Notes: generated from the sequence alone by a model not told the origin. Shown: positions 9,836 through 37,800, counted from the stretch's first letter. The stretch: DNA of 64,000 nucleotides from Chthoniobacterales bacterium (GCA_035941675.1 DASZDT010000004.1:1837-65836); one strand, 5' to 3'. Translations and numbers: made by a program.

Positions 9836-9843
9836 CCGGCGTT

Positions 9844-15230: not shown

Positions 15231-15304
15231 GTCACCCCATGTAGTAACCGCCGTTCACATTCAAAACGTGGCCGGTGATGAAGCTCGCCATGTATGTGCG
15301 AGGA
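15231..15304 (-). pseudogene. orphan 3'-terminal fragment of a FabG-like SDR gene (duplicate of 18569-18643)
   Basis: 15231-15291 matches 18569-18629 at 57/61 nt by hand alignment. It encodes ...MASFITGHVLNVNGGYYMG* versus ...MASYITGHVLNVNGGYYMG* of the intact gene. Similarity continues with a 1-nt indel (gcgaggaa) and is then lost. Confidence 0.75.
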
Positions 15305-15340
15305 AAATACCTCAAACAACGTGGATTGGGATAGTCACCG

Positions 15341-18414: not shown

Positions 18415-18481
18415 TTCGACGTTGTCATGAATGTTCGGATGGTGAGTGGCTGCAATCGCATGACAATTAGCATACGGGGTG

Positions 18482-18496
18482 GGACAAATATTGTCC
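18482..18496. promoter_or_regulatory. perfect 6-3-6 palindrome GGACAA-ATA-TTGTCC about 70 nt upstream of the methyltransferase start (candidate operator)
   Basis: Read directly: gggacaaatattgtcc. A second small palindrome TGCAC-AGGA-GTGCA lies at 18535-18548. Confidence 0.25.
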
Positions 18497-18568
18497 TATC
18501 CCGAAAAAAATTCAGAACCGTCGCATTTTGGCGCTGCACAGGAGTGCAACAATCTAAATAAATCGGCT

Positions 18569-19324
18569 TCACCCCATGTAATAACCACCGTTCACGTTCA
18601 AAACGTGGCCGGTGATGTAGCTCGCCATGGGCGAAGCGAGGAAGAGCGCGGCGTTCACGATTTCATGCACGTCGCCGAGGCGGCCGAGCGGGATCTGCTT
18701 TTTGAAGTTTTCCGTCACTTCGTCGGGCATCCCTTTGCTCATGCCGACGTCGATGAATCCGGGCGCGATCGCGTTCACGGTAATGTTTTGCCGGGCCAGC
18801 TCCCGCGCCGAGACTTTGGTCAGCGCGATGATGGCCGCTTTGCTCGACGAATAATTCGCCTGGCCGAACAATCCCATCTGGCCGCTGACCGACGACAGAT
18901 TGATGACCCGCCCGTCGTTGCGCAGGATCGTTGCCGCCGCCTTGGTGACGTTGAAGGTCCCGGTGACGTTGACGCGGAGGACGCTTTCGAATTCCTCGAC
19001 CGCCATTTTTTTCATCGTCCGGTCGCGGATGATTCCCGAATTGTTGACCAGGACGTCGAGCCCGCCGTGGCGCTCCTGGATCTGCTTCATCATGGCCTCG
19101 ACCTGCGCCGGGTTCGTCACGTCGCACTCAATTACGAGCGGCTCGCGTAACTCCGCCGCAACCTTGGCTGCATCCGTCTTGTTCGTTCCATCCGGATCGG
19201 CCACATAATTCACCACGCACTTCGCCCCGCGCGCTCCAAACGCCTTGATCATTTCCGCCCCGATCCCGCGCGAACTGCCGGTCACGAGAATGATCTTGCC
19301 GCCGAAATCCAAAGGATCACTCAT
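18569..19324 (-). CDS. SDR-family oxidoreductase, 3-oxoacyl-ACP reductase (FabG)-like
   Basis: TGSSRGIG cofactor motif, NNSGI, catalytic YSSSK, C-terminal GHVLNVNGGYYMG. Confidence 0.9.
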   Translation of the reverse strand: MSDPLDFGGKIILVTGSSRGIGAEMIKAFGARGAKCVVNYVADPDGTNKTDAAKVAAELREPLVIECDVTNPAQVEAMMKQIQERHGGLDVLVNNSGIIRDRTMKKMAVEEFESVLRVNVTGTFNVTKAAATILRNDGRVINLSSVSGQMGLFGQANYSSSKAAIIALTKVSARELARQNITVNAIAPGFIDVGMSKGMPDEVTENFKKQIPLGRLGDVHEIVNAALFLASPMASYITGHVLNVNGGYYMG

Positions 19325-24671: not shown

Positions 24672-26027
24672 TCAGCTCTTCAGGGCAACCTCAAACGGCG
24701 CGCCGGTCTTGGCGCGGACGTCATCGACCGTGGCGCCGGGTTGCAGCTCTATCAGGACAAGCCCGCCGCCTGGTTTCACCTCGAAGACAGCGAGATCGGT
24801 GATGATGAGATTGACGACGCCGAGACCGGTGATCGGCAGGGTGCATTCCTTCAAAATCTTCGGGCTGCCGTCCTTCGACGTGTGCTCCATCACGGCGACG
24901 ACTCGCTTCACGCCCGCCACCAGGTCCATCGCGCCGCCCGGCCCTTTCACCATCTTGCCCGGGATCATCCAATTCGCGATGTCGCCCTTGTCGGTCACTT
25001 CAAACGCGCCGAGAATCGCGAGGTCGATATGCCCGCCGCGAATTTGGGCGAAGGAATCCGCGCTCGAGAAAAAGGCCGAGCCGGGCATGGTCGTGATCGT
25101 CTGTTTGCCGGCGTTGATCAGGTCGGGGTCCTCTTTGCCGGGTTGCGGAAACGGGCCGATGCCTAACAACCCGTTCTCCGATTGCAGCGTCACATTCATT
25201 CCTTCGGGAATGTAATTCGCGACCAGCGTCGGAATGCCGATACCCAGATTGACGTAATACCCTTCGCGTAATTCCTGCGCGGCGCGTTTCGCGAGCAGAT
25301 CGCGGATCGAGGAACCGGCCTTCGCGACCGCGGCGCCCTGGACCGTGCGGAACTCAATCCGCTTCTCGTAGTTCGCTCCCTGAATGATCCGATCGACGTA
25401 AATCCCCGGCGTGTGAACCTGATCCGGATCGAGCTCGCCCACTTCAACCAGCTCTTCGACTTCCGCGACGCAAACCTTCCCGCAGGTCGCGATCATCGGA
25501 TTGAAGTTCCGCGACGTCATTCGGTAGATGAGGTTCCCGGATTTATCGCCCTTCCACGCTTTCACGAGCGAGACTTCGGCTTTGATGCCCGGCTCGAGGA
25601 CGTATTCCTTGCCGTCGAAAGTTTTCGTCTCCTTGCCCTCGGTCAGTTTGGTGGCGAACCCCGTCCGCGTGTAGAACCCGGGAATGCCGGCGCCTCCCGC
25701 GCGCAATCGCTCGGCGAGCGTCCCCTGCGGGATCAGTTCCAGCTCGAGCTCGCCGCTCAACACCTGGCGCTCGAATTCCTTGTTCTCGCCGACATACGAC
25801 GCCATAACCTTCTTCACCTGTCGGGTCGTAAGAAGAACGCCCATGCCGAACCCATCGACTCCCGCGTTGTTGCCGACGATCGTGAGGCCCTTCACGCCAC
25901 TCTCGTGCAACGCCGCGATCAAATTCTCCGGAATCCCGCAAAGCCCGAAGCCGCCCGCGGCAATCGTCATGTTGTCGTGGAGCAGACCAGCCAGCGCTGC
26001 CTTGGCGTCAGGGTAAACTTTGCTCAT
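24672..26027 (-). CDS. fused 3-oxoacid CoA-transferase (A and B subunits in one 451-aa chain)
   Basis: A-part [40 protein letters not shown]-part [31 protein letters not shown] (catalytic Glu motif SENG), GGAMDLV. Confidence 0.9.
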
Positions 26028-26077
26028 GTGGACCGAAATCTAAGCACGGATTCCAGGGATCGGCACGGATGAATTCC
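25992..26077. repeat. direct repeat copy A: 5' end (12 codons) plus 50-nt leader of the fused CoA-transferase gene
   Basis: Aligns without indels to 27756-27841 (offset 1764 nt). 41/44 identical in the leader part (26034-26077), roughly 72/86 overall by hand. Confidence 0.8.
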
Positions 26078-26229
26078 TAGGCGATCCCGGGACCCACTCG
26101 TCGCGTGGGGCCCTTGGACACACCCTCGCTGTCGTCAACAGGCAACTCGATATCCCGGGCCTATCCTCGCCGCGCTCGGTTCTGGTTCGGTTAGCGCGTC
26201 AGCGTGGACTCGCTCCAAGAAAAAAACGC

Positions 26230-26258
26230 TTGAAAGACCTTAACGATATGAGCATATA
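26230..26258 (+). promoter_or_regulatory. possible sigma70-like promoter for the DUF4062-like/ACT gene (TTGAAA-17 nt-CATATA)
   Basis: Read by eye about 75 nt upstream of ATG 26331. Weak -10. No experimental or statistical support. Confidence 0.2.
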
Positions 26259-26330
26259 GGGACAGCATTCCCCGGAATAAAAGCTCTGGCATTTTAGCCA
26301 AGCACAACCCTCTCTGAATCCCCTCTCGCC

Positions 26331-27704
26331 ATGCCTACCCCTGATAAAGTAGAGCCACGTACCGTTCTCATTAGCAGCCGCATTGACGAGCTCGGTTCCT
26401 CGCGCCGAGCGGCTTTTCGTGCGGTTCACGATGAGGGTTGGATCCCGCTCCTCTATGAAACTGAACCGCTTGCATGGTTAGCCGCCCAGCGACACGCACG
26501 GCGGAAAGGGCAACAGCCTGTTCAACACGTAATGCAGGATAATGAGATCGAACGGTTGACGATGAACAGCCTTCTCAATACTGCCGACCATTTCATTGGC
26601 ATCTACGGGACTTCCCTGGGTGAGCCAAGTCCCCAGCTGAGTGGCCTCCGTCCAATTGAATACGAATTCGTACGCTTTCTGGTGGGCCATGTGTTGGGGA
26701 ACGAGAACGCGAACGAAGAGCGGCTGGCCGATATGTTTCGTTCGAACCCTTCTCCTGCAGGTTTTCGGGCTGCACGGGATAAATTACGACGGGCCGTCAG
26801 AAGCATTTATGACGAGTCAAGCGACTATCACAAAGTGTTCCGTAAGCGGATGGCGTTATACCTTAAGAAGCCGCCGAGCGATGTTTCTCCCCCCTCTTCC
26901 ATGTACGCGATCATCAACAAGTTGCGCCGGGCTGTTCCGGGCGAGCAGATCTGCTTCTTTACGTCTGAATTCGAGCAGGTTGCAAGTGGGGCCGTCGTGT
27001 ATTGCAGACCAAGTTCTCACCTTTATGTGAAGATCCGTTTGCAGATTCAGCAATGGCGTCTTAACGGCGACCTTCCAAACACATCGAGGCCGCAGGGCGG
27101 CGAGTTTTCGTTCGAGGTTGTGTCGCGCGAGCACGTGGGCGCGGTTCTCCACGTCGTGAGATCCATTTTTTACGAGGGCTATAACGTGCGAAAGCTGAGC
27201 TTGGGCATGAACGAACAAGCGGAGCGGGTCATGCACGTCACGGTGAAGCCCTATTTGCACGCTCGAGGTGATCTCCGTGAGCAGCTAAATACACATTACG
27301 GTTGTGAGGTGCGCGACTGCCCAAATCCGCACGCCGTAAAACCCCTTTCGGGCGATGTTGCGATACGGCAACTAGAGATGATCGTCGCCGATCGTCCCGG
27401 GATGTTGGCGCGCGCCTTAGCCGCTCTCGCGCTTCTGGATATGCAAGTGCTCGAAATACGAATGGAAGATGCCGAGCATAGTGGAGGACCGGGCCGTGGG
27501 CCACGTAACCACGTTTGGGTGACCTTCGAGGAATCGCGAGGCTCGGAGGTGAAGAAGGACAAGAGTATGCTTCACGATTTTCAGTTGCCTGACGATCGGC
27601 AATTCAAACTTGACTTCATCGCGGCCGACTTGGCCTCACAACCGGGGTTTTACTCCGTGATTCTTACTAATATGGCGAGCAACGCCTCTCGTGCTCAGAG
27701 TTAA
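26331..27704 (+). CDS. DUF4062-like (TIR/nucleoside-deoxyribosyltransferase-like) N-terminal domain fused to two ACT-like domains, 457 aa
   Basis: N-terminus VLISSRIDELGSSRRAAFRAVHDEGWIPLLYE ... ADHFIGIYGTSLGE ... LRPIEYEF follows my recollection of the DUF4062 consensus (vFiSS..DL..eR......l...G..pv..E ... cDvyvgilG.rYG ... S.TelEy). C-terminus FSFEVVSREHVGAVLHVVRSIFYEGYNVRKLSL and LEMIVADRPGMLARALAALALLDMQVLEIRME are ACT-like. Confidence 0.75.
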   Translation: MPTPDKVEPRTVLISSRIDELGSSRRAAFRAVHDEGWIPLLYETEPLAWLAAQRHARRKGQQPVQHVMQDNEIERLTMNSLLNTADHFIGIYGTSLGEPSPQLSGLRPIEYEFVRFLVGHVLGNENANEERLADMFRSNPSPAGFRAARDKLRRAVRSIYDESSDYHKVFRKRMALYLKKPPSDVSPPSSMYAIINKLRRAVPGEQICFFTSEFEQVASGAVVYCRPSSHLYVKIRLQIQQWRLNGDLPNTSRPQGGEFSFEVVSREHVGAVLHVVRSIFYEGYNVRKLSLGMNEQAERVMHVTVKPYLHARGDLREQLNTHYGCEVRDCPNPHAVKPLSGDVAIRQLEMIVADRPGMLARALAALALLDMQVLEIRMEDAEHSGGPGRGPRNHVWVTFEESRGSEVKKDKSMLHDFQLPDDRQFKLDFIAADLASQPGFYSVILTNMASNASRAQS

Positions 27705-27734
27705 GTACCAATTGATCCGTTCGAGACCTTCATG

Positions 27735-27791
27735 TCAGCAATGGCGCACTGCCTCAAGCGCAGTCTTGGCGTCGGAATAAACCTTGTTCAT
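27735..27791 (-). pseudogene. 18-codon relic of a CoA-transferase 5' end (MNKVYSDAKTALEAVRHC*)
   Basis: Compare the intact gene [16 protein letters not shown]. Part of direct repeat copy B. Confidence 0.65.
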
Positions 27792-27841
27792 GCGAAGCGA
27801 AATCTAACCACGGATTCCGCGGATCGGCACGGATGAATTCC
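27756..27841. repeat. direct repeat copy B (see 25992-26077)
   Basis: cgaaatctaaCcacggattccGCggatcggcacggatgaattcc versus cgaaatctaaGcacggattccAGggatcggcacggatgaattcc, plus the diverged ATG-proximal codons. Confidence 0.8.
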
Positions 27842-27923
27842 GATCCCAAACGTGAGAGCGCGACGTCAGTTAATGCCTGAAGAGGCGATTGTCTCCCATT
27901 GCCCAAAATGATAATCTCTCTTC

Positions 27924-28145
27924 GTGAGCAGAGTATCTGTCGCTGATGTGCTCGAGCTGAGCGTAAGTGAACGCATCCAGCTTGTGGAGGAAATATGGGA
28001 TAGCATCGCGGCCGTTCCGCAGGCGACTCCGTTAACGCCGGCTCAACGGGAAGAGCTTGGGCGACGACTTGAGGATTATCGGCTGCATCCGGACGAAGGC
28101 TCGCCCTGGGACGAAGTGAGGAGCCGCCTTCTCGCCAGTAAGTAA
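27924..28145 (+). CDS. putative addiction-module antitoxin component (partner type of RelE/ParE toxins)
   Basis: LSVSERIQLVEEIWDSIA...LTPAQREELGRRLEDY...SPWDEV matches the 'putative addiction module component' family pattern (L...eR..L...lwdSl.......l.........el.rR...). Confidence 0.65.
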   Translation: MSRVSVADVLELSVSERIQLVEEIWDSIAAVPQATPLTPAQREELGRRLEDYRLHPDEGSPWDEVRSRLLASK

Positions 28146-28297
28146 TGACCGGCCAGGTCATCTTCAGATCTCGCTGGTGTTCCGGTTCGGCATCGCGAAA
28201 AAAAACTGCGTTTTCACAATTCAAACGTGTCCCTCGGATCGGGGCGATGAGACACAGCCTGGGCGGCAAGGCAGCTACGGAAAACGCCCCGCGTTAG
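28145..28297 (+). pseudogene. possible degraded RelE/ParE-type toxin remnant
   Basis: ATG overlaps the antitoxin stop (TAATG). It starts MTGQVIFRS like ParE/RelE N-termini and then loses similarity. An alternative frame reads FRFGIAKKNCVFTIQTCPSDRG, reminiscent of a toxin C-terminus. Suggests an internal deletion or frameshift. Confidence 0.25.
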
Positions 28298-30729
28298 GGA
28301 AGCGCGGCCACAACCAACGGATCGCCATCCAGGCGACCGTCCAAATCGCGATCGATTCCCATCCGCACGCCGGAGCCAAGCGGAACTCCGGTGATGCTAA
28401 GAATGTCTCCCGCGGCAATCTTTGCTTGCAGCTCCGCCTGCGAGAATGGGCCCACGCCCGTCTTGTCCGACAAATAACTGTTGTTTACTGGATCGTAGAC
28501 GAGCCCGCGCTGCGCACCGTCGACAGTTCCTTTCGCGATCAGGTCGATGTTCGAGGCCGCAGCCTGGCTTTGCAGTACCGTCCAATCGTTCGTCACCGCC
28601 GGGTCAGCGACGTTCGTGGCGGTCACGGTGCGGGTGAATCCCACGGCGGGCGCGGTGCCGGTGTCGAGGCAGAGCAGGAACGCGCTGATGTTCGTCTTTC
28701 GGACTGTGTCGTTCGTAAAGTTGGTGAAGACGGGTCGACTAATGAACGCGAACAGGCCCGGATCGGTGCCATCGTGAGTGAGGCCAAAGCCGTCGAGCGA
28801 CACTGCGCCCGACGCGGTGTTGAAGAATTTCTTCTGATATAAGGTGCGCAGTTGCGGGACCTTCATGGTCTGCGGTTGCTGCATGACGGGACCTGAGGTG
28901 AACGTCTTGTCTGTCCCGGGGCCCGGATCCACCTTGTGGCACATGTTGCACGAGATGGTCGTCGTGTACGGCTCCGTCCGGAACGTGTTCATTCCCGCGG
29001 CGGGGTTGCCGCCGGCATGCGTGGGCGGCAGGGTGCGATCGAGCTGTTGATTTGGATTCGGCGGCAGGTTCATGGTCTCGACGAATTGCGCGAAGGCGTC
29101 CATATCCGCCGGGGTCAGCTGCGAGCCGCCGAGCAGGGAGGCAAAGGCCGGGCTGAAGGAGGTGAACCCGGCGCGGTCACCGCGCCAATGCAGCGGCGCC
29201 AGATTCTTCAATCCTTTCAGGGTCTGCGTTGTCATGGGCCCTTTCATGGGATGCATCGGGAACGTCGTCGTCGCGCCGGTAAGCGAGGCCGGTCCGACGA
29301 CGTTCTGCATCTGGCCGTTTGGATCGCCGAGATCCCACGCGAGCCGATCGTTGGTGCCGTCCAGGTGACACGAAGCACAGGAGACAGTGCCGTTGCCGGA
29401 GAGGCGCGCGTCATACAGGAACCCACGCCCATTCTTAATCACCACCGGAGTCGGATCGAATCCGCCGACCGGGACTTCCGATACGACCGCGTTGGCCGCT
29501 GTGTCCACGACGCTGATCGTGTTCGAGATACGGTTGAGAGAATAAAGTTTTCCACTCCCTGCGTTTAAGGCGAGCCCGCGCGGGCCGCGTTTGTTCCGCG
29601 GATTGACGGCCGCGCCGGCCAAATCAATGCGGGAAGCGACGGTGCCGTCCGCGTTCATCTTCGCGATGCGATCGCTGCCGAAGGCCGCCACGTACGCGAA
29701 GGTCCCTTGGGGCGCGAAGACGATCGCCGTGGGTTGCCCCAGGGCTGTCGCCTGCGCCGATGGATTCGGGAGCACGGAATAATTGACGCCCGGGTTCAGA
29801 TCGGAGATGCGAAGGGCGCCGCCGGCGTTGGAAATGCGGGTAACGCGATTATCGACAAAGTGGGCGCGCAGGTTGGGCTCGAAATGCACGAGGTTCCGGG
29901 CGTCGGTATTGGTGACGAAGATGTCGCCGGTCGTGGGTTGCACGGCCAGGCCGAGATTGCTCGTGCCGACGCGTGGGAAATAGCGCGTAACTGCCAGCGT
30001 GCTCGTGTCGATTTCCGCCACGTCGTTATCCGGCATTGTGTATTTGATGACCTTCCGCCACGTCGTGTCGGTCGCGTCGACAATCAGGCCGACCTTCGGT
30101 GGCTGGGGCAGGCTCCGGTTCGTCGGCTTCGGTTGTGAAGGGGCTTTGTCCGCGGGGATCAACGTCGTGCGGTTTCCCGATTCAGCGAACGCGACATAAA
30201 TTCTCGTCCCGTTGGGGCTCACGGCAAGGGCGCGCGGTTGCTGGCCGTTCAGCGGAATCGTCTTCACCAAGGCGTGCGTCGAGGTGCTGTAGACGCGCAC
30301 TTCGTTGTTGCCTGCGACGCTCACGAAGGCGAACGCCCCCGCAAACACGACATCAGCCGGCTCATCTTTCACGTTGATCGTATCGGTCACGATTCCACGT
30401 GAGAGCGAGACGATGCTCACGCTGTCGGAGAGTTCGTTCACCACCCAGACTTCGTCGTTCGTCAGCGGGTTCACCGAAACGGGCTCGATTCCGACCGGGA
30501 TTTCGTAGGTCAAAACCGGGGGGGTCTGGGTCGCGTCGAAGACTGAGAGCCGCGCATCGGCGCTATTGACCGCGCACAACCAGCGGCCGTCGGGCGAGAG
30601 CCGAAGGGGATTTGTCTGCCGCGCCTCGAAGTTAACGAAGGCAGACGACGGAACCTGCGCCTGGCTCTGCTCTAAAAAAACAGCGAGGGCGCCGGCGAAA
30701 AGGAGGGAGTGGAGCAAGGGGTGGCGCAT
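28294..30729 (-). CDS. secreted YVTN-type beta-propeller fused to a di-haem cytochrome c peroxidase-like domain
   Basis: Signal peptide. Repeated propeller strands (LSPDGRWLCAVNSADARLSVFD, LAVSPNGTRIYVAF). Two haem c motifs: CASCH (SCASCHLDGTNDRLAWDLGD) and CNMCH. Confidence 0.8.
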   Translation of the reverse strand: MRHPLLHSLLFAGALAVFLEQSQAQVPSSAFVNFEARQTNPLRLSPDGRWLCAVNSADARLSVFDATQTPPVLTYEIPVGIEPVSVNPLTNDEVWVVNELSDSVSIVSLSRGIVTDTINVKDEPADVVFAGAFAFVSVAGNNEVRVYSTSTHALVKTIPLNGQQPRALAVSPNGTRIYVAFAESGNRTTLIPADKAPSQPKPTNRSLPQPPKVGLIVDATDTTWRKVIKYTMPDNDVAEIDTSTLAVTRYFPRVGTSNLGLAVQPTTGDIFVTNTDARNLVHFEPNLRAHFVDNRVTRISNAGGALRISDLNPGVNYSVLPNPSAQATALGQPTAIVFAPQGTFAYVAAFGSDRIAKMNADGTVASRIDLAGAAVNPRNKRGPRGLALNAGSGKLYSLNRISNTISVVDTAANAVVSEVPVGGFDPTPVVIKNGRGFLYDARLSGNGTVSCASCHLDGTNDRLAWDLGDPNGQMQNVVGPASLTGATTTFPMHPMKGPMTTQTLKGLKNLAPLHWRGDRAGFTSFSPAFASLLGGSQLTPADMDAFAQFVETMNLPPNPNQQLDRTLPPTHAGGNPAAGMNTFRTEPYTTTISCNMCHKVDPGPGTDKTFTSGPVMQQPQTMKVPQLRTLYQKKFFNTASGAVSLDGFGLTHDGTDPGLFAFISRPVFTNFTNDTVRKTNISAFLLCLDTGTAPAVGFTRTVTATNVADPAVTNDWTVLQSQAAASNIDLIAKGTVDGAQRGLVYDPVNNSYLSDKTGVGPFSQAELQAKIAAGDILSITGVPLGSGVRMGIDRDLDGRLDGDPLVVAALP

Positions 30730-30816
30730 AAAGGCGGCGATTCAACTCCAATCGCGGACAAATAGGAAGTGCTAACTTCGGGGCGCATGCTGTCCCCCTA
30801 ATTGCGGCTGCCTACT

Positions 30817-31302
30817 CTAGCGATCAGTATAACGCTGGGTCAGCGTCAGAATAATATGCGATTTGCCCGCAGCCCCGGGTTCCTGATCGGGTAAGCTTTT
30901 AGACAAGCTGAATCCGCATTTTTGCAGAACGCGCAGCGACGCGGTGTTGTGCGGGGCTACACCGGCGCAGAGTGGCCGCCGTTGTTCGAGGCGGAGAAAC
31001 AAAGAGAGCGCTTCGGTGGCAATGCCGCGTCCCCAAAGCGCGCGGTCGATCCAATAGCCGATCTCGCGCTCCCCGTCGCGCAGGAAACTGGCGATGCTTC
31101 CCGCTACCTGGCCGTCGGCTACGATGGTTTTCGTGAAACAGTTCTCGTCGGCCAGGATCTTGGCCCAGTGCACATCGAACTCAGCCCTGTCCCGCGAACG
31201 GAAGGCAACCATCGCGACCGCGACGGGATCTCGCTGGTGTTCGAAGAAGTGGGGCAGGTCGCCCGGTTCGACATCGCGGAGAACGACGTTTGGTGATTTC
31301 AC
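30817..31302 (-). CDS. GNAT-family N-acetyltransferase (161 aa, GTG start)
   Basis: IGYWIDRALWGRGIATEAL (acetyl-CoA-binding R/Q-x-x-G-x-G/A motif), ASLRVLQKCGF. GTG at 31302 overlaps the POT stop (GTGA). The 570-aa track ORF is an artefactual extension. Confidence 0.75.
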   Translation of the reverse strand: MKSPNVVLRDVEPGDLPHFFEHQRDPVAVAMVAFRSRDRAEFDVHWAKILADENCFTKTIVADGQVAGSIASFLRDGEREIGYWIDRALWGRGIATEALSLFLRLEQRRPLCAGVAPHNTASLRVLQKCGFSLSKSLPDQEPGAAGKSHIILTLTQRYTDR

Positions 31303-32807
31303 ACGACGGCGGCAGCAGGACCGGCGGGGGTGGCCGCTTCGACGGGAGTGGTCTCGGCCCGGTCGGTGATCAGTTTGCGCAGGAACGGATTGAGCACGGC
31401 GAGTGCGATCCCGACCACGAGGCTGCCGATGCCGAGCTTGGCGAACAGCATCGCGTACTCGGGATTCGTGGCGGCGGCGCCGGTGCCGGTCGGCTCGGGA
31501 ACCATGCCGGAGAAGTCGCCGGCAAACAGGGAGGCGAGGCCGGTCACCAGCATCCAGCTTCCCATCATCACGCCCTGGTATTGTTTCGGCGCGAGTTTGC
31601 CGATCATGGCGTATCCGATCGGCATGATGAGCAGTTCCCCGATACTTTGCAGGACGTAGCTCGCGAACAGCCACGCGAACGCGCTCTTGCCGTCGCCGGC
31701 CAGCTTGATGCCCAGCGGCAGAATGAGAAACGCCACCGCCATGAGAAGAAGCGAGGCCGCGAATTGCCTCGGGATATCGATTCTCCACCCGCGCGCGCGC
31801 ATCCGGATAAAGAACGACGCCAGCAACGGCCCGCCGATCACGATGCAAACCGTGTTGATGTTCTGGATCCACTGCGGCTGGATCTGCACGGGCCCCATCA
31901 TCAGGTCCACGTTGTTGACCGCGAACAGCATGAGGCCGCTCGGCGCCATTTGATAGAGAGACCAAAACATCAGCGAACCGATCGCCAGGATCAGGAACGC
32001 CGTCATGTTGCGGCGCTCGCGCCGATCGGGGTGGCGAACCGTAAGATAGATGAGCGTGGCCGCGACCGCGCCGCTGATCGCCTTCAGGATTATGCCGGTG
32101 CTCCCGGGCCGCTGGAGCATGAACCACACGACCGGGACGAGGCCAATGAGAATGGCGAGGCCGGCGACCACCCGGAGCCGGAACTGTTTTGGCGCGACTT
32201 CGAGCAACGGAGTGTTGCGATCGGCCAGCGTCTTCCACCAGAGCAGGGCGAGGACGATGGCGGCGAAGTTGCCGAGCGTGGCGAAGATGAAAAGGCTCGA
32301 ATAACTCTCGGTCGCCTGATAATAACCGGCGGCCGTGAACCCGACGAAGAAGCCGACATTCATCCCGGCGTAATTCCAGAGGAAGGCGCCTTCGCGACGC
32401 GGGTCTTCCGGGGCGAAGCGCTGGGTCAGCATCATGTTGATGCAGGTGACGTTGAGGCCGCTGCCGGTAAGGAAAAGGGCGAGACCGACGTAGAAAAGCG
32501 CGAGCGTGCCGCTGGCGATGCAGGCGCACCCGATCACCTGGAGGCCCATGCTGCCGACAAAAAGGTTGCGGTTCGAGAGGAAGCGGCCGCCGAGGTAACC
32601 GCCGAAAAGGTGCAGGCCGTAATTGAACGCGCCGAATACGCCCATCAGCATCGTCGCCGCTTTCACGGAGAGCTGCAGATGCTTCGTGGCGTAGAGGACG
32701 AGGGTCGAATAGAGGACCGCGAAGCCGAGCGTCGAGAAGATCTGAATGAAGAAGAGCGCGGCGGTTCCCTCCGGCGCCCCGGCGAAACGGCGTTTGAGTG
32801 ATTGCAT
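31299..32807 (-). CDS. POT/PTR2-family proton-dependent oligopeptide transporter
   Basis: FSTLGFAVLYSTLVLY, GAFNYGLHLFGGYLGGRFL (PTR2 signature-like), about 14 TM. ATG 32807 chosen. Confidence 0.85.
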   Translation of the reverse strand: MQSLKRRFAGAPEGTAALFFIQIFSTLGFAVLYSTLVLYATKHLQLSVKAATMLMGVFGAFNYGLHLFGGYLGGRFLSNRNLFVGSMGLQVIGCACIASGTLALFYVGLALFLTGSGLNVTCINMMLTQRFAPEDPRREGAFLWNYAGMNVGFFVGFTAAGYYQATESYSSLFIFATLGNFAAIVLALLWWKTLADRNTPLLEVAPKQFRLRVVAGLAILIGLVPVVWFMLQRPGSTGIILKAISGAVAATLIYLTVRHPDRRERRNMTAFLILAIGSLMFWSLYQMAPSGLMLFAVNNVDLMMGPVQIQPQWIQNINTVCIVIGGPLLASFFIRMRARGWRIDIPRQFAASLLLMAVAFLILPLGIKLAGDGKSAFAWLFASYVLQSIGELLIMPIGYAMIGKLAPKQYQGVMMGSWMLVTGLASLFAGDFSGMVPEPTGTGAAATNPEYAMLFAKLGIGSLVVGIALAVLNPFLRKLITDRAETTPVEAATPAGPAAAVV

Positions 32808-32868
32808 CCGGCGCTGGTTGTGACTCGCTGAGCCGGACGATGTCAAGCCGCGTCCTCGATGCAGCCGA

Positions 32869-33642
32869 TCAGCTTTTCGTCGCCGGCTCCTCATTTCGCG
32901 TCACTCGCGCTGCTTCCTCGTCGTCGGTCCGTTTCCAGAACGCAGCGAAGTTAGCGTCCTTCCCTTTCTTGCCCGGCACTCGATCCATCACCGACGAAAG
33001 CCAGCGCGGCGGCGTCTTGGGCTGGTATTGCGGAACAGCGAGGCTGAAGTTGAGCATCGTCTTCAGGAAGATGAAGACAGCGAAGAAATTCCGGTTCGCT
33101 CCGGTGAACATCATCGCCATCATTCCTCCGACGATCGTCAGATGAATCACGAGCACGCGACTAAGGCTCAGGTTGCCGAGCCGTTCGATCCAGGCAAACG
33201 GTTGGGTTCGCAGCCAAACGAGATCAAACCCGAAATCCGCGACCTGAAAAAACGCGATCGCGGTCAACCCGGCGAGAAGCGAGTGGACGTCGATCCGCGC
33301 TTCCGGGCTGTGATGCTTTGAAATCATGATCAGGCCGAGCGCGCCGAGAAAGACGCCATGAGCAACGGTGAAGGCCAGGGCCGGCACCAAAAACGCCGAC
33401 AGATAAGTCGACCGATCGTTGGATTGCCCTTCCTTACCCTGGGGCGCCTTGTAATCCCAGTGCCCTTTGCTGGGCCGGACACGGCGATGAACAACAATGC
33501 GGATCGCGACGAGCAACGTGCCGACCAATGTCTCCAGCCAATAAAGCAGCAACGTTGTCCCAGCCGACCATTCCCCCACGAACCAGCCCAGCGCCGGCAC
33601 AGCATTCAGCCCGAGAGCAAGGAGAAGAGCCCGGCCGCGCAT
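32869..33642 (-). CDS. multi-pass membrane protein, function unknown
   Basis: Several hydrophobic helices (ALLLALGLNAVPALGWFV, LLLYWLETLVGTLLVAIRIVV, LVPALAFTVAHGVFLGALGLIMI...). Confidence 0.6.
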   Translation of the reverse strand: MRGRALLLALGLNAVPALGWFVGEWSAGTTLLLYWLETLVGTLLVAIRIVVHRRVRPSKGHWDYKAPQGKEGQSNDRSTYLSAFLVPALAFTVAHGVFLGALGLIMISKHHSPEARIDVHSLLAGLTAIAFFQVADFGFDLVWLRTQPFAWIERLGNLSLSRVLVIHLTIVGGMMAMMFTGANRNFFAVFIFLKTMLNFSLAVPQYQPKTPPRWLSSVMDRVPGKKGKDANFAAFWKRTDDEEAARVTRNEEPATKS

Positions 33643-33707
33643 CGAGCCGGCAACGTTACTGACGACGGCGCGCGCTCACCAGTGCTAACTCAAGTCTCAA
33701 GACCGGG

Positions 33708-34796
33708 ATGAGGATTACGCTGGAAGATTTGCGGCGGTTTGCGGTGGGGCGGTCGCTCTTCGCGCCGACGACGTTGCCGCGGGCGCTGGACCGGATGGGA
33801 TTTGTGCAGGCCGATCCGATTCGAGCGCCGGCCAGGGCGCAGGATCTGATTCTGCGGCATCGAGTGAAGGGCTATCGGGCCGGCGACTTGGAACGGCGGT
33901 ATGAGGCGCTCGGGGTCGAGGAGGATTTCTTTATCAATTATGGGTTCGTGACCCGCGCGGTGCAGAGGTTGATGCATCCGCGCGCGGAAGAGCGTGTGCC
34001 GGCGGCGGAGCGGAGGAAGGAAAAGCTGCTGCTGGATTTTGTGACGGAGCGCGGCGCGGTGCATCCGCGTGAGGTGGAAGAACATTTTGCGCATGGAACG
34101 GTGCGGAATTACTGGGGCGGCTCGTCCCATGCGACGACCCAAATGCTCGACGCGCTCCATTACCGCGGAATGCTCCGCGTGGCGCGGCGTGAGAAGGGCA
34201 TTCGGCTTTACCGCCGTCACCGGCATGAACCGGCGCAGCTGGACGAAGCAGGCCGGCGGGCGCGGACCGATGCGCTGGTCGATGTGGTGGTGAACATTTA
34301 CGCGCCGCTCCCGGCGGTGAGTCTTTCGTATTATGTGCGCCGGTGGCGTTTCGCCGCGCCGCAATGGGAGAAGGAGATCACCGGGGCGTTGCAGCGCGCT
34401 CGGGAACGGCTGGCGCAGGCCAGGGTGGACGGCCTCGATTGGTACTGGCCTAACGAGGCGAATCCGGGAAAGGCAAGAGAACCAGAAGGCCTCTGGTTCC
34501 TGGCGCCGTTCGACCCGGTGGTGCACGACCGAAAACGTTTCGAGCTGTTGTGGGGCTGGAATTATCGCTTCGAAGCCTATACGCCGGCGCCGAAACGGAA
34601 GCTCGGGTACTACGCGCTGCCGTTGCTCTGGCGCGATCGCGTGATCGGTTGGGCGAATCTCGCGGTGAAGAACGGGAAGCTGGACAGCGAGTTTGGATAC
34701 GCGGCCGGGCGGCCGCCGCGCGATCGTGATTTCAAGCGCGAGCTCGACGCGGAGCTGGAGCGGATGCGGGCGTTTCTCGGAGCGAATGGTCTGTAG
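33708..34796 (+). CDS. YcaQ/AlkZ-like winged-helix protein (DUF1006, crosslink-repair DNA glycosylase family)
   Basis: LDRMGFVQADPIRAPARAQDLILRHRV contains the Q-hydrophobic-D motif of the YcaQ branch. Also WGWNYRFEAYTPAPKRKLGYYALPLLWRDRVIGWANL. Confidence 0.8.
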   Translation: MRITLEDLRRFAVGRSLFAPTTLPRALDRMGFVQADPIRAPARAQDLILRHRVKGYRAGDLERRYEALGVEEDFFINYGFVTRAVQRLMHPRAEERVPAAERRKEKLLLDFVTERGAVHPREVEEHFAHGTVRNYWGGSSHATTQMLDALHYRGMLRVARREKGIRLYRRHRHEPAQLDEAGRRARTDALVDVVVNIYAPLPAVSLSYYVRRWRFAAPQWEKEITGALQRARERLAQARVDGLDWYWPNEANPGKAREPEGLWFLAPFDPVVHDRKRFELLWGWNYRFEAYTPAPKRKLGYYALPLLWRDRVIGWANLAVKNGKLDSEFGYAAGRPPRDRDFKRELDAELERMRAFLGANGL

Positions 34797-34873
34797 CGAC
34801 AACGCTCTGTCGCCGTAAACCGTTGCTTTTGACATGATCCATCTGATTGACAGCGGTTGTGTGCCGAAAAAAT

Positions 34874-37800
34874 TTAGTATTCTGCTTCAAACGAGGGATG
34901 AACCCACAGGAACTCCTGCCGTTTATTCTGCACCCGCACAAGCCCGCCAAAAGTCGGATCCTCTTCCTTTAACCACGCATGCAACTGTCGCAAAACGCCA
35001 CCTTCTGCCCGAATCGTTGTCCCCGCTTGGAGATCTATGCCGTCGTCCTTCGTCAGCCACTCACCGACCTCTCCTCCACCTTTGAGAAGCGATTCTGCCG
35101 TGGCTTTGCCCAGCGCTAGCTGCGCTTCGATTCCCTTATAACTCGTTTCCGGTAGCGCTACCTTTGCCGTCGCGGCGACGACTGGCAGGAGCAACCCGAG
35201 GGTGCTCGATAACACTTTTAGGAAAGGCGCAGCCTTCACTAGCCACTCACGGGGCAAGTCGATCGTGTACGCACCGGCATCCTTGTCGTCCGAGTAAAAC
35301 CAGAGCGGGCGACGGGAATGTTCGCACCAAAGCGTCAGCCGAAACTTCGCGCTTATCCACTTCGGTCGATCGAAGAATCCCGGCTCCGCCGGTTCGAAGC
35401 TAAAGAGCCGTGGCCCTTCCTTTGCCTCGTCCACCACAGTTCGCATCAACGCAGTATAGGCGTCTTCCACCTTGCTGACGATTTCACGTCCTGTCGCATC
35501 GACTCGATCGAAACGGCCGATCACCTGCACTTCGTGCGCCGCCAATTGCACTCGAATATCATCTAAGCGCTGCATCATCTTGTCCTGATGCGTGAGTAAC
35601 TCTTCTATAGGATTCGCTCGCGCGGCCGGGGCATTGTCGAGTAGTTGATCGATATTCTGCCACTCATTGCAAATCGGGCATGGTTGCTCGGGCCTTCCGC
35701 GCTTTTTGTTTTCGAGCAGCTTGCCAACCTCGAACAATCCTTTGCACACATCTCCGTTTGGTAATGGAACGAGACAGGGTACCGTAACGTCGCAGCGAAG
35801 GCCGCCCCAAAAGCTCTCGACCAGCCATTTCACTTCGTAGGTGAGCGCGGAGAGGAAACGCGGCGGATAGGGCGAACGCACCGTGATGCGTACATCGTTG
35901 CCGATGTGCTCCAGAAAGGCGCGTGCTCCTGTGTCGTCCTCCACCACCAGTCCCCGTTGCCAGTGGACGCTGTCTCTGAAGTTCGCGCGGCCCAGGGAGA
36001 ATTTATGCAGGCGCACAATGAGCTGATAGAAAAGCCCCTCGGCAGTGGCGGATTGATTGTTCGCTGTCTCCACAATTCGGCAGATTTGCAATTGTTGCTC
36101 GTCGCCTTGTGCGAGGTCTTCCGGCCAGACACCCTTGAGGTCCGTCTCTGGACGAACGTCGGGCACTAATTGAGCGATCAAGCTCGTGCCGTCTGTATCG
36201 TTTCCGCCGCCCTCCGCAATTCGATAGGACAGATCGAAGCGCTCCATCAGCCGCAAAAAGATCGAGTGTAGCGGAGCCGGGTACCGAAACTCTGGCGCGC
36301 GAGTGCGATGGTTCCACAATTGGCCTAGTCTGCGAAACGTCACGAGGCCGTGGTTATGGCGAGTGTTCTCATCATCTAACACGAAACTTACTGCAGTCGC
36401 CAGCCAGTCGGGTTTAAGCACCACGATGTTCCTCAGCACCGGGTCGTGTTCATAGTGGATTAGATCACCGACGCGGTGGCAGATGCGGATCAGCAGGCTG
36501 GCATCCTCCTCGTCCACCTTGTGCCTCTTGCAGATTGCGTAAACACGATCCAGTGGCAGATACGCCTCCTTGCTCGTCCGCAATGCTTCCCGCGCCTCCT
36601 GCCAGTGTTTCGGGACGCTTCGCCCTACTTCCGGAAGCGACGCTGCTACCTTGGCGATAGCGTTCTTTAAATCCTCGATGCCTTTGCAAGCGCCGGTCCT
36701 CGCTCCGTTTTTTTCGTTCGGCTCTGGGGGTCGACAATCGACGTGAAAGAAATCAATGACCGTGTTTTCGCCAAAAAGATCCCATATTTCCTGTCGGTCG
36801 ATGTCGGGCTGGCGTGCCTCCGGCCCGCCGTGAGTGGCAACGACGAGGATTTTGGCCTCGGGCTCACGATGCTTGACCAACTTGATCCACTCCTTCACGA
36901 AGCCCTGCTGCGGACCTTCGCGTGGCTTCCACACCACCAGGTAAACGGCCGGGGCGCTGAAGAATAATTGGTGCGTTGGGCGATACACCCGCTGCCCGCC
37001 GAAATCCCAGCCATTTAGGGTGATCTCCGTCGCTGTAGCCGGGTCAATTACTTTTACGGGTTTGATCTCGATGCCGTGAGTCGTGGGACGGCCTTCCTGC
37101 CAAGGATCACCTCGCAACGCGCCAAGCAGGGAGCTCTTCCCCACCTCTCCCTCGCCGACTAGAATGAGCTTTGCCTCATTCAGCACAACCTTTGCGGCCG
37201 CCTTAGCGCGCAGATAGCGTTTGATGGCGTCGAGGCCCATCTTGTAGGCGGCGGCGAGTTCAGGGTTCAACGGATTATCGTCGAGGTCGAGGTTGGTTAG
37301 GTGTTCGAGTTGGGCTAATGAAGGGGGCAGGTCCGTCAGACGATTCCCTCCGAAAGTAGTTCCGAGCCCCAGATCGGTAAGTCCTCGCAGTTGACCGATT
37401 TCATCGGGAATCTGACTGATTTCATTGTCATCCAAGTCGAGCCGTTCCAGTGCATGGAGTTCAACTATCCAAGTTGGGACGATTTCGAGATGATTGCTGA
37501 AAAGGGAGAGCAAAGTCAGTTGCGACAAACTCCGTAGCACCTCCGGGAATTCTTTGAGATTGTTTTTTGGCACCCAAAGTTCCCTCAACCGTGTGAGTTC
37601 GCCCAGCGTGTCCGGCAACGCCGCCAGTTGGTTGTCGTAAAGGCTTATCGATTGCAAACGCGTAAGTTGGCCCACCCACTTCGGCAATATCGTCAGTTGA
37701 TTGCTGGAAAGGTCCAACGACTGCAACTGCACGAGCTGGCGCACGCACTCCGGCAGAATCGTCAATTCGTTATGAGAGAGATCCAGCGACCGCAACTGCA

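Follow-up and report, generated by a model that had tools for sequence, protein, structure and literature searches.

How small accessory and defence genes move from genome to genome without obvious mobile-element machinery is an open question, and it is one that arises especially in abundant, barely cultured soil phyla such as the Verrucomicrobiota. It is raised here by a locus in a window (the whole stretch of DNA that was analysed, 64,000 nucleotides, GCA_035941675.1 DASZDT010000004.1:1837-65836) from a member of the Chthoniobacterales (Verrucomicrobiota), a soil bacterium. A preliminary description had pointed to a single-gene cassette bracketed by an indel-free 86-nt direct duplication (72/86 identical, period 1764) of the start and leader of a fused CoA-transferase gene (CoAT), with no recombinase. 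That interpretation is partly supported, and the locus probably belongs with the scars already known from terminal displacement or homology-facilitated illegitimate recombination.

The surroundings of the insert need to be considered first. In relatives, CoAT and prpDBC adjoin and are divergently oriented, prpD lying 0.1-1.4 kb from the CoAT leader in three of them (L023, L014 and L015) and a GNAT gene following the leader directly in L012; in the window the two are separated by a variable gap of 12.4 kb filled with accessory genes. Thus, while the insert is indeed bracketed by copies of the CoAT start as first described, its neighbourhood is not a stable one, and in the Chthoniobacterales the CoAT-prpDBC gap is a recombination hotspot that collects accessory genes. 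CoAT itself is conserved (88-95% amino acid identity between the window and eight full-length relatives). The loci used for comparison are mostly metagenome contigs. An assembly artefact as the origin of the structure is ruled out by an independent Logan contig (L001), 100% identical across both repeat copies and of even depth, and by the presence of the same architecture in L030, an ENA assembly from another sample. The features concerned are as follows.

24672-26027, minus strand: CoAT, intact, 451 aa, the conserved anchor gene (Pfam CoA_trans, E=2e-123)
25964-26077, minus strand: repeat copy 1, comprising the working leader (26028-26077) and CoAT codons 1 to about 22; gap-free core 25978-26077
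26078-26330, plus strand: cassette upstream (promoter) region, type I1, common to L002 and absent in L003 and L030
26331-27704, plus strand: cassette gene, 457 aa, with a predicted N-terminal domain of divergent DUF4062 (TIR-like NADase) type, then a helical linker and a pair of ACT-like domains
27705-27727: short spacer with the old junction between the cassette 3' end and a truncated CoAT start, a junction found also in L030 and L003
27728-27841, minus strand: repeat copy 2, an orphan CoAT start (about 22 codons) and orphan leader; gap-free core 27742-27841
27842-38507: remainder of the gap, from the CoAT leader to prpD (Pfam; comparison with relatives), containing the next seven features, all assigned by Pfam
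27924-28145: Unstab_antitox antitoxin
28294-30729: CCP/beta-propeller protein
30817-31380: GNAT
31299-32894: POT
32869-33642: DUF6498
33708-34796: AlkZ-like gene
34874-38290: LRR-Roc-COR
38508-39953, plus strand: prpD, the conserved gene that bounds the hotspot at its other end, with prpB and prpC next in line (Pfam MmgE_PrpD, PEP_mutase and Citrate_synt; synteny)

The duplication is readily recovered. A repeat search finds 25978-26077 and 27742-27841 to be 80% identical over 100 nt without gaps at a spacing of 1764, while self-BLAST of the window aligns 25993-26077 with 27757-27841 at 84.7% over 85 nt (E=1e-19), in agreement with the 72/86 first counted. The gap-free part consists of 50 nt of leader, 44/50 identical (88%), and 50 nt of coding sequence (17 CoAT codons), about 69-72% identical, and an identical stretch of 21 nt is common to both copies. 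If one 1-nt indel is allowed the homology extends to 25964/27728 (about 114 nt, about 22 codons), and judging from the copies in L030 and L003 it might reach about 25 codons. Translation of copy 2 gives the orphan stub as originally read, MNKVYSDAKTALEAVRHC*, its frame being broken after codon 18. The leader holds three ATCCGTG heptads about 10 nt apart, and a 33-nt core of it occurs only twice in the 64 kb (0.00 expected), both times in the repeat. Copy 1 adjoins the cassette, and copy 2 is the right edge of a block that is common to L030 and to a contig found in runs X2 and X3. The two copies have different affinities: copy 1 is 90% identical to the leader and start of L002 and 77% identical to the window's own copy 2, which in turn matches the working leader and start of L012 at 92.4%. 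A transposon target-site duplication was considered and rejected, given that the repeat is 100-114 nt long, that its copies group with different lineages and that the repeat search of the window reported no terminal inverted repeats.

Between the copies there is one plausible gene and no other, as had been stated, and the interval was also correctly described as AT-richer. Its GC content (26078-27741) is 0.550 against 0.602 for the whole window, within the lowest 7% of equal-sized windows, its tetranucleotide distance is in the top 3.5%, and the GC3 of the cassette is 0.605 against 0.79-0.84 for CoAT, MFS, POT and MCM. The interval is foreign in composition, the contrast being moderate.

Evidence as to its history comes from the relatives. 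Seven of them (L010, L012, L013, L014, L015, L018 and L023) have the empty site that the preliminary description envisaged, with CoAT and its leader present, the leader kept to its last base (GAATTCC), and neither cassette nor stub. The window's GNAT region comes immediately after the working leader in L012; in the window a further insert of 3 kb (27844-30831) lies between stub and GNAT. The combination of cassette and stub is common to several diverged lineages, namely L030, L003 and contigs in runs X2, X3, X5 and X8, and the junction between cassette and truncated CoAT is older than the lineages sampled; the locus is well described as an acquired single-gene insert, but it was not in this genome that the duplication arose. 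The cassette-plus-stub blocks of the window and L030 are 94% identical in nucleotide sequence, and at fourfold sites the cassette is 88% identical as compared with 54% for the flanking CoAT and GNAT; the stub region, at 81% over 114 nt, falls under the cassette's fourfold-site figure. The contig from X2 and X3 is about 97% identical to the window over 26001-27838. The right end of the exchanged block is at 27838-27841, the last bases of the leader, and beyond it lie at least three kinds of flank: antitoxin and CCP (window), Fic (L030) and unrelated sequence (the X2/X3 contig and contigs from X5, X6 and X8). On this comparison it is evidently the cassette-plus-stub block itself that has been exchanged horizontally between lineages.

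Other relatives show what may become of such a block, and what else may occupy the site. L003 has a frameshifted cassette and a stub into which a deletion has cut; in L030 the stub is a 29-codon ORF whose leader has lost the heptads. L002 has a DUF4062-ACT gene next to the CoAT leader, with unrelated DNA downstream, and in L029 a homologue of the cassette is inserted elsewhere, without duplication. The stub ends vary with the cargo, at about codon 22-25 for the DUF4062-ACT cassette and at codons 43 and 54 for other cargo. L022 and L024 carry arrays of stubs, these being short multi-stub contigs in which assembly chimeras are possible. In L022 the junction flank and stub codons 1-27 are of the type found with a toxin-antitoxin cassette (90-91%, vs 76% to L018), the outer end of the leader and the next 640 nt are of the L018 type, and the whole L022-L018 match is 94%, a pattern that apparently reflects a crossover within a stub. 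Across more than 12 loci the variation starts exactly past the last base of the leader. This sharp GAATTCC edge would also fit a site-specific att site; it is explained equally well by purifying selection, which acts on the functional leader.

The different affinities of the two repeat copies have a separate explanation, for which one further feature must be introduced.

25971-26355: imported L002-like recombinant tract of about 385 nt, which spans copy 1 and the intergenic region and reaches about 8 codons into the cassette gene

Rightwards from 25971, informative sites are of L002 type in 42 cases and of L012 type in 4, as against 96 and 115 in the body of the gene, and a breakpoint test gave a Max-chi2 of 31.9, reached by 0/1000 permutations. 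Sliding identity to L002 holds at 85-95% as far as about 26420 and drops to 50-70% beyond; identity to L003 is absent before about 26350 and then 83-97%. Judged by these site patterns, 25971-26355 evidently represents a later overwrite, by an L002-like third lineage, of an older copy of the R type. The copies are about 20% diverged, much of this being due to the overwriting of copy 1 by the third-lineage tract. Homologous recombination, against which the preliminary description proposed to test the divergence of the copies, does fit, but not as a single event that sets donor against recipient.

The reading that we prefer, to which a probability of roughly 0.6 may be assigned, is one of terminal displacement: one-ended homologous recombination would have displaced the gene start, and homologous recombination of the ordinary kind would have come afterwards, with the stub acting as a portable arm. 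In a first step, which we infer for an ancestor of the window, L030 and L003, DNA would have been received from a relative with a DUF4062-ACT gene beside its CoAT leader, an arrangement that persists in L002, and would have recombined by homology on one side only, in CoAT; the other end, about 20 nt beyond the cassette stop codon, would have been joined illegitimately within the recipient CoAT at about codon 22-25. The route would be homology-facilitated illegitimate recombination, or an equivalent single crossover of a circularised fragment. In either case the intact CoAT would gain the imported start and leader, while the recipient's own start and leader would be moved 1.8 kb off as a dead stub on the native upstream flank. 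The resulting block is bracketed by CoAT 5' sequence and is therefore movable by ordinary two-sided homologous recombination; in a second step, which the comparison of relatives supports, it would enter related genomes in this way whatever sequence lies upstream, with CoAT or copy 1 as left arm and the stub and leader as right arm. The third step, in the lineage of the window, was the replacement of copy 1, the intergenic region and the first cassette codons by the L002-like tract of about 385 nt that the site patterns reveal, and the fourth is the decay seen in some lineages, as in L003.

Several observations agree with this reading: the gene's terminus is contiguous with the cargo and the stub with the native flank, there are empty sites, and no element-encoded recombinase was found in the searched loci. 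Pfam scans for integrase, transposase and resolvase domains gave none in the 12.4-kb gap or in the variable-region ORFs of about ten related loci, as the preliminary description had supposed for the vicinity of the cassette, and a dedicated recombinase is not involved in the proposed mechanism. It counts against displacement that a homology arm of about 114 nt, 80-92% identical between lineages, would be a poor substrate for RecA, and that between the window and L030 the stub region, albeit just 114 nt long, is less alike (81%) than are the fourfold sites of the cassette (88%). Furthermore, homology-facilitated illegitimate recombination is orders of magnitude below ordinary recombination in frequency in experiments (PMC5361080). 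In favour of the reading, the same mechanism has earlier been proposed for the orphan arrays at T6SS and Rhs loci (PMC5361080).

One rival is a Campbell-type event, in which a circle of about 22 CoAT codons, leader and cassette would enter the CoAT start through one homologous crossover, in place of a one-ended recombination whose illegitimate joint is made in the chromosome. It would predict the product exactly, the intact gene lying by the cargo and the native flank bearing a truncated copy, and would account for the truncated terminus in every scar, all without a recombinase. However, the product sequence is the same as for homology-facilitated illegitimate recombination, the model still requires both an illegitimate closure of the ring and recombination within about 114 nt of diverged homology, and the circular junction was not seen in contigs from eight metagenome runs (contigs being able to show presence, not absence). 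We consider it improbable.

Slightly less probable again is a recombinase acting in trans on a tiny integrative mobilisable element, with an att site in the 5' end of CoAT, which would bring a replacement start and promoter and leave stubs from successive integrations. The repeated use of one locus, the stub arrays in L022 and L024, the onset of variation at the leader's last base in those more than 12 loci, the three heptads as candidate protein-binding sites and the identical 21-nt stretch in both copies would all suit such an element. Against this, the gap and about ten related loci lack a recombinase in the scans described above; there is no fixed core, the stubs ending at about codon 22-25, 43 or 54 depending on the cargo; the crossovers vary in position, that of L022 lying within a stub and that of the window where the leader ends; like scars occur at three other gene termini of unrelated sequence; and the L029 homologue is inserted elsewhere without duplication. 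The varied stub ends and the other scarred termini, in particular, appear to speak against site specificity.

It is very unlikely that the duplication is functional, the second leader having been selected as a promoter for an antisense RNA over the 3' end of the cassette or as an operator copy. Copy 2 has kept its leader half better than its coding half (88% vs about 70%), and this leader does point into the cassette gene from the 3' side, but the coding part was duplicated too, its decay is lineage-specific (the window's frame stops after codon 18, L030 has an ORF of 29 codons and L003 a truncation), and the heptads are gone from the stub leader in L030. Rfam gave no matches, and shuffled sequence is predicted to fold better than either copy on either strand (z = +1.0 to +1.4). 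Least probable of all is a deletion relic, in which the cassette replaced the body of the second of two tandem CoAT paralogues in an ancestor: the stub does keep a start codon, recognisable codons and its own leader, but the second full copy whose existence the preliminary description had allowed for is present at this position in none of eight full-length and four partial CoAT loci, the nearest matches of the stub are the working starts of orthologues in other lineages and not a paralogue of its own, the native flank in L012 comes directly after one working leader but in the window after the stub and a 3-kb insert, and differing stub lengths recur with differing cargo.

Terminal displacement as preferred here can be set beside several systems. 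Homology-facilitated illegitimate recombination (de Vries & Wackernagel 2002; Prudhomme et al. 2002; Meier & Wackernagel 2003, as cited in PMC5361080) likewise integrates foreign DNA by homology at one end and by an illegitimate joint at the opposite end, with no need of an element-encoded recombinase; it is known, however, from laboratory transformation, mostly with deletion in the recipient, whereas here it would be deduced from natural genomes, and the joint here falls within the anchor gene so that its terminus is duplicated. C-terminal displacement with orphan arrays is known at Rhs, CDI and T6SS effector-immunity loci (Jackson et al. 2009; Kirchberger et al. 2017, PMC5361080). There too an incoming module replaces the terminus, the old one shifts outward as an orphan, and repetition builds arrays that spread by ordinary homologous recombination; but the displaced part is a functional, diversifying 3' toxin tip with its immunity gene, whereas what is displaced here belongs to a housekeeping gene, namely its 5' start and leader (or its 3' end), cargo and anchor gene are unrelated, and the stub as such is without function. 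The minimal mobile elements of Neisseria (PMC3787668, PMC3082526) are likewise single genes or small cassettes between conserved genes, moved by homologous recombination in the flanks without a recombinase of their own. They need two different conserved flanking genes, whereas here the far flank is unconserved and the second arm comes from a duplicated stub that belongs to the near gene.

SXT/R391, a conjugative element of about 100 kb that encodes a tyrosine integrase and uses a short, fixed att core, integrates in the 5' end of prfC. The inserted DNA gives the target gene a new promoter and 5' coding end, as here, but neither conjugative size nor tyrosine integrase nor fixed att core was found at the present locus. 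Integron arrays are similar in having small cassettes beside one fixed gene, a recurring separator and older cassettes displaced outward; here, however, IntI was not found, the separator is a gene fragment rather than a folded attC, and the cassettes bring their own upstream regions. An integron cassette was rejected, there being no integrase in the gap and the repeat folding worse than shuffles (z about +1).

The preliminary description had likened the locus to an island at a fabG (SDR) gene elsewhere in the window, and the geometry is indeed the same.

15232-18629, minus strand: second scar, with an SDR 3'-end stub (15232-15292) and the intact SDR 3' end (18569-18629)
15341-15865: PIN gene inside the SDR scar (Pfam)
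15862-18414: MmeI-like N6-methylase gene inside the SDR scar (Pfam)

The repeat is of 61 nt at 93% identity (E=3e-19), and the GC3 of the cargo is 0.53-0.54 as against 0.81 for the SDR gene; the old terminus forms the stub on the native flank, and the terminus of the intact gene adjoins the cargo. Like scars are found in relatives at the prpD 5' end (L002, where the stub retains an upstream flank of L023 type) and at the CoAT 3' end (L018). It is conceivable that stub-flanked cassettes are a general recombinase-free format for mobility in the Chthoniobacterales, carrying their own homology arms, able to enter by ordinary homologous recombination any relative with the gene concerned, irrespective of the sequence further out, and building by repetition integron-like arrays of defence, toxin-antitoxin and other accessory genes at housekeeping-gene ends, though we would put this somewhat short of an even chance. 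At this locus the picture would be of a conserved metabolic gene serving as landing pad and incoming DNA that brings a spare gene end, the displaced end then providing the second homology arm that makes the cassette portable. Should the picture hold generally, duplicated gene termini would be a cheap, annotation-free marker of recent gene flow, and would help in finding new defence candidates in metagenomes.

As to the cargo, the preliminary label of defence-like is plausible, and it is probably a single-gene NADase-type anti-phage protein. The cassette protein scores 17.6 bits against Pfam DUF4062 (PF13271), below the gathering cutoff of 24.7, and its ACT match is sub-threshold too. Among 14 close homologues, ACT or ACT_4 is matched by 10 (best E=1.9e-7) and DUF4062 by 7, below threshold. 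A search with an N-terminal profile retrieves 95 cluster representatives, and in ten of these that were checked, five exceed the DUF4062 cutoff (25.1-29.0 bits) and four more fall below it, so that membership of the family is supported only transitively. PADLOC 2023 gave no match for the cassette. Two glutamates, E110 and E112, are invariant in the 14 homologues, within the motif LRPLEYE that follows the strand HFIGIYG, a position comparable with E87-E103 of assayed DUF4062 systems.

Single-gene DUF4062 (NIR, TIR-like NADase) defence proteins are described in preprints on Evangelion, Swarozyc and Vulcan (bioRxiv 10.64898/2026.06.25.731849, 10.64898/2026.05.01.722283, 10.64898/2026.09.04.749371). 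Like these, the cassette is a single gene of patchy distribution, horizontally mobile, whose product would begin with a DUF4062-like core, its invariant glutamate placed as expected, and continue with an auxiliary region. Unlike them, the window protein is below the Pfam threshold and its NADase and defence role is a predicted one, while a tandem ACT auxiliary region was not found in the searched parts of those preprints; the cargo would add a DUF4062-plus-ACT architecture to these newly recognised proteins. The N-terminal model has a pLDDT of 66, and its best PDB matches are weak (E >= 0.025), including plant TIR domains and nucleoside 2-deoxyribosyltransferase. The full-length AF2 model has a pLDDT of 76.5, and its C-terminal half matches tandem-ACT regulatory domains, among them those of IlvA, GcvR-like double ACT proteins and the ACT domains of SerB2 (E down to 2e-6, probability 1.0). 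Sequence matches and predicted fold both identify ACT domains, here in tandem, and this module, of a kind that binds small ligands, suggests activation by a small-molecule ligand.

The preliminary description had reported that the start and leader of the fused CoA-transferase gene (CoAT in what follows) recur beyond a single intervening gene, and this duplication is real: a repeat search returns a 100-nt direct repeat, ungapped and 80% identical, at a spacing of 1764 nt, and when the window is compared with itself by BLAST the core of this repeat reaches E=1e-19. The elements concerned, in window positions, are these.

24672-26027 (-): CoAT
25978-26077 (-): copy 1, comprising the 50-nt leader and codons 1-17 of CoAT
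26331-27704 (+): the DUF4062-like/ACT gene (457 aa), the only gene between the copies, called the cassette below
27742-27841: copy 2, or the stub, an orphan start plus leader, translating as MNKVYSDAKTALEAVRHC*
26028-26077 and 27792-27841: the leader in each copy, on the CoAT sense strand three ATCCGTG heptads at about 10 nt spacing beside GAATTC

If one 1-nt indel is allowed, the homology extends to 25964 and 27728 (about 22 codons); identity between the copies is 88% in the leader half and about 70% in the coding half. An independent Logan contig (L001; L-numbers denote related loci or contigs compared with the window, X-numbers metagenome runs) is identical to the window over both copies, with even depth. 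The 33-nt leader core occurs at two sites in 64 kb, namely the two copies, against an expectation of 0.00, which together with the E-value excludes a chance repeat, while the restriction of the leader to these sites excludes a recurrent regulatory or REP-like element. An RNA gene, riboswitch or tRNA target is likewise ruled out, since Rfam gives no match at E<=1 and 20-40 kb contains no tRNA. Judged from sequence alone, the repeats of a diversity-generating retroelement seem unlikely, there being no reverse transcriptase nearby and the repeat spanning a leader. A second, unfused CoA-transferase paralogue 22 kb off (2269-2886), which aligns to residues 16-219 of the main CoAT at 47% amino acid identity, has no relation to the stub.

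Scanning 21 bases of the leader's outer part (one position left free) against genome and metagenome collections leads to loci in Chthoniobacterales and other Verrucomicrobiota, where the leader precedes a CoAT 88-95% identical in protein (an exact look-up of the CoAT protein itself found none on record); the pattern is exact in 10 CoAT loci found by the scan and conserved elsewhere. At one locus, L017 (5857-5894), the same leader sits just beyond an unrelated gene, at its 3' end, and no CoAT start adjoins it. In L023, L014 and L015 a homologue of the window's prpD (38508) follows 0.1-1.4 kb beyond the leader, and then prpB and prpC, which implies that CoAT and prpDBC were ancestrally divergent neighbours; in the window 12.4 kb separates them. 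The DNA directly upstream of the leader's last bases (GAATTCC) differs in every relative. Seven relatives (L010, L012, L013, L014, L015, L018 and L023) have CoAT and its leader with neither the cassette nor a second CoAT, so that empty sites of the kind envisaged in the preliminary description do exist, while the idea that the stub is the deletion relic of a tandem paralogue is supported by no relative and is very unlikely. A compositional contrast, which had also been anticipated, is present: GC is 0.55 in the interval against 0.60 in the window, GC3 is 0.605 in the cassette against 0.79-0.84 in adjacent core genes, and the tetranucleotide distance of the interval lies in the top 3.5% among windows of equal size. 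The reading of the cassette as an acquired insert therefore holds, but the neighbourhood is not the stable one that had been supposed, as the 12.4 kb between the CoAT leader and prpD form a variable gap, or hotspot, whose contents in the window are listed here together with the places where relatives have cargo immediately upstream of their CoAT leader.

Window, 12.4-kb gap: cassette, stub, Unstab_antitox antitoxin, CCP/beta-propeller protein, GNAT, POT transporter, DUF6498, AlkZ-like glycosylase, LRR-Roc-COR
L013 (oriented), 5548-7999: cargo upstream of the leader
L018 (oriented), 9677-11413: cargo upstream of the leader
L030, 3506-4780: cargo upstream of the leader

Among the cargo in these three relatives are DUF4238, DUF5131 together with a partner lacking annotation, a TIR/beta-helix protein and a Fic protein, from which it appears that the hotspot gathers mainly defence-like or toxin-like genes. 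No recombinase domain is found in the window's 12.4-kb gap. Two parts of this gap may be noted in passing. At 27924-28297 the antitoxin gene overlaps a downstream ORF of 50 codons without a family match, which abuts the end of the CCP/beta-propeller gene and looks like a truncated toxin partner; the low-GC stretch reaches about 28200, covering the antitoxin region. The LRR-Roc-COR (ROCO-type) protein of 1138 aa (34874-38290) occupies the region of most deviant tetranucleotide composition in the window, and its leucine-rich repeats correspond to the 69-nt tandem repeats at 37523-38212.

The two copies of the CoAT start have different affinities. The working leader and start of L012 are 92.4% identical to the window's stub, and in L012 the leader is followed directly by a homologue of the window's GNAT gene (30832-31292) and then by POT; this match, together with the adjoining flank, identifies the stub as the native-type start, its native flank abutting the leader in L012 and being set off by an extra 3-kb insert in the window. 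Copy 1 groups instead with L002, a different lineage. At sites distinguishing L002 from L012, the body of the window's CoAT is mixed (96 L002-type, 115 L012-type), whereas from 25971 rightwards 42 are L002-type and only 4 L012-type; the breakpoint has a max-chi2 of 31.9, a value reached by none of 1000 permutations. From about 25971 to about 26355 the window is 85-95% identical to L002, and from about 26355 to 27766 it resembles L003 and L030 (83-97%), its identity to L002 there being down to 50-70%. These alignments show the window itself to be a mosaic. Both L030 and L003 couple a window-type cassette with an R-type working copy (R-type being the allele common to the working starts of L003 and L012 and to the window's stub) and with I', an intergenic region of another type than the window's, so that the simplest history is one in which the window's lineage once had the same arrangement. 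A tract of about 385 nt from an L002-like donor would then have entered by two-sided homologous recombination, with CoAT as the left arm and, as the right, the part of the cassette that encodes its conserved N-terminus. This tract accounts for a large part of the 20% by which the window's copies differ; the preliminary description, in taking that divergence as the result of a single event, had overlooked that copy 1 is a later overlay on an older arrangement, although its suggestion that the divergence pattern might betray homologous recombination at the flanks fits.

The age of the structure likewise differs from that implied by a local duplication, as it is common to L030 and L003 and has been exchanged between diverged lineages. 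L030, from another sample, has the full architecture (CoAT, R-type working copy, I', cassette, a 22-codon stub plus leader, a Fic gene and GNAT), with a cassette 95.8% identical in amino acids to the window's and with its two copies about 89-92% identical in their coding parts, ending at the same point. L003 has an R-type working CoAT start, an intergenic region (I') unrelated to the window's, and a frameshifted cassette of 86% nucleotide identity, while its stub keeps the first 25 nt or so and is then lost to a deletion running to the 3' end of POT. L002 carries a homologue (59% amino acid identity) in the same divergent position beside CoAT, with the window's intergenic DNA at 85-95% and no stub. 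Nucleotide identity of CoAT is unusable as a clock, since all pairs fall at 77-87% with third positions near saturation; at fourfold-degenerate sites, window and L030 are 54% identical in CoAT, 54% in GNAT and 88% in the cassette, which argues that the block was exchanged long after the genomes had diverged. The right edge of this exchanged block of cassette plus stub is the end of the orphan leader: a contig of X2/X3 is about 97% identical to window 26001-27838 with unrelated sequence thereafter, and contigs of X5, X6 and X8 show further differing flanks past 27837-27841. For near-identical strains, contigs of eight metagenome runs reveal neither an excision nor an empty-site variant; the joints that seem to skip the 1764 nt in X8 and X5 are the L030-type arrangement (R-type working copy, then I') and not excisions.

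Comparable scars occur with other cargo and at other genes. Two short metagenome contigs, L022 (1-1577) and L024 (1-1677), each carry two CoAT 5' stubs (about 54 and 43 codons) in alternation with a cupin gene and a toxin-antitoxin pair (DUF433/DUF5615), and the toxin-antitoxin end plus stub recurs as a unit at 84-93% identity. In the cupin-side stub of L022 the junction flank and codons 1-27 are of the toxin-antitoxin-cassette type (90-91%, against 76% to L018), while the leader's outer end and the next 640 nt are L018-type, the whole L022-L018 match being 94%; a crossover inside the stub or leader is thus indicated, which is what use of the stub as a homology arm would produce. L002 (9377-10631) has a frameshifted prpD leader plus about 38 codons on an L023-type native upstream flank, then a 246-aa ORF (no Pfam match) and, behind it, an intact prpD with a different upstream flank. 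This prpD scar is the mirror image of the CoAT scar, at the opposite edge of the hotspot. In L018 (oriented as the window; 3624-3873 and 6540-6790) a 250-nt CoAT 3' fragment, 75% identical to the window's CoAT 3' end, adjoins an MFS gene, and between it and the intact CoAT lies a 705-aa ORF whose product is probably secreted. The window itself holds a further case.

15232-18629: SDR ('fabG') island, cargo bracketed by the intact SDR gene and by a 61-nt SDR 3' stub that matches the intact end at 93% identity

This cargo comprises a PIN gene and a gene for an 850-aa MmeI-like N6-methylase, with GC3 of 0.53-0.54 against 0.81 for the SDR gene; an empty site was sought in other runs, where coverage was too fragmentary to show one. 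In all these scars the truncated copy sits on the native flank and the terminus of the intact gene adjoins the cargo, and the kinship earlier proposed between the CoAT and SDR scars thus extends to prpD in L002 and the CoAT 3' end in L018.

The best fit to these observations is terminal displacement. We infer a founding event in which one-ended homologous recombination would have been completed by an illegitimate joint (a circularised fragment integrating by a single crossover would give the same product), after which ordinary homologous recombination would carry the block further. Comparison of the sequences shows the mosaic tract, the exchange of the block and the decay of the structure. A less likely reading is a site-specific element with a recombinase acting in trans, which the very sharp outer boundary at GAATTCC would suit. 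Against it, scans of about ten loci give no recombinase, the stub end-points vary with the cargo, the crossover positions vary between cases, and scars of this geometry are found at four gene termini unrelated to one another. A transposon target duplication is ruled out by the length of the repeat and by the grouping of each copy with a different lineage, and an integron, or an attC-like hairpin, by the lack of IntI and by a repeat that folds worse than shuffled sequence. What survives of the preliminary interpretation is therefore an acquired cassette, the absence of a recombinase and a scar of homologous-recombination type, its views of age, single-event divergence and neighbourhood stability having had to be given up. 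Terminal displacement at the CoAT locus is a mechanism of a known kind, the same model having been put forward to explain orphan arrays at T6SS, Rhs and CDI loci (PMC5361080). What appear not to have been described previously are scars at the starts of housekeeping genes with their leaders, the probable service of the stub as a homology arm that travels with the block, and multi-stub arrays in an uncultured soil clade.

As to the cargo, the cassette protein has Pfam matches to DUF4062 (residues 12-102) and ACT, all sub-threshold, and none in PADLOC. Its family is rare (17 matches in a word-indexed search); its N-terminal region shows strong conservation across 14 homologues, E110 and E112 being invariant in the motif LRPLEYE. 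A word-indexed profile search with the N-terminal domain finds family members alone, while an exhaustive one finds 95 cluster representatives, mostly of 440-570 aa, and five of ten representatives checked pass the DUF4062 gathering score, several also showing ACT. A sequence search of the PDB gives weak ACT-like matches only. In the full-length model (pLDDT 76.5) the predicted C-terminal half matches tandem-ACT regulatory modules; for the N-terminal model (pLDDT 66) the best PDB matches, among them TIR domains and a deoxyribosyltransferase, are non-significant. Three 2026 preprints describe DUF4062 as a TIR-like NADase, the effector of single- and multi-gene anti-phage systems, with the catalytic glutamate at E87-E103 (bioRxiv 10.64898/2026.06.25.731849, 10.64898/2026.05.01.722283, 10.64898/2026.09.04.749371), and given that report the cassette is plausibly a ligand-gated NADase defence gene, as predicted from sequence and models.

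A frameshifted homologue (58% amino acid identity) lies in L029 (971-2675), a close relative, between DUF6498 and AlkZ, with flanks 91-96% identical in nucleotides to window 32704-33986, where the equivalent of the insert is just 74 nt (33646-33719); no flanking duplication accompanies it. The remaining homologues stand in unrelated contexts. In L006 (2697-9440) and L007 (621-7364) a distant homologue, P0012 (44% amino acid identity), directly follows a gene for a TIR_2-domain protein, upstream of which an HSP70-like gene, a Cpn10 gene and a 549-aa ORF make up a setting suggestive of defence.
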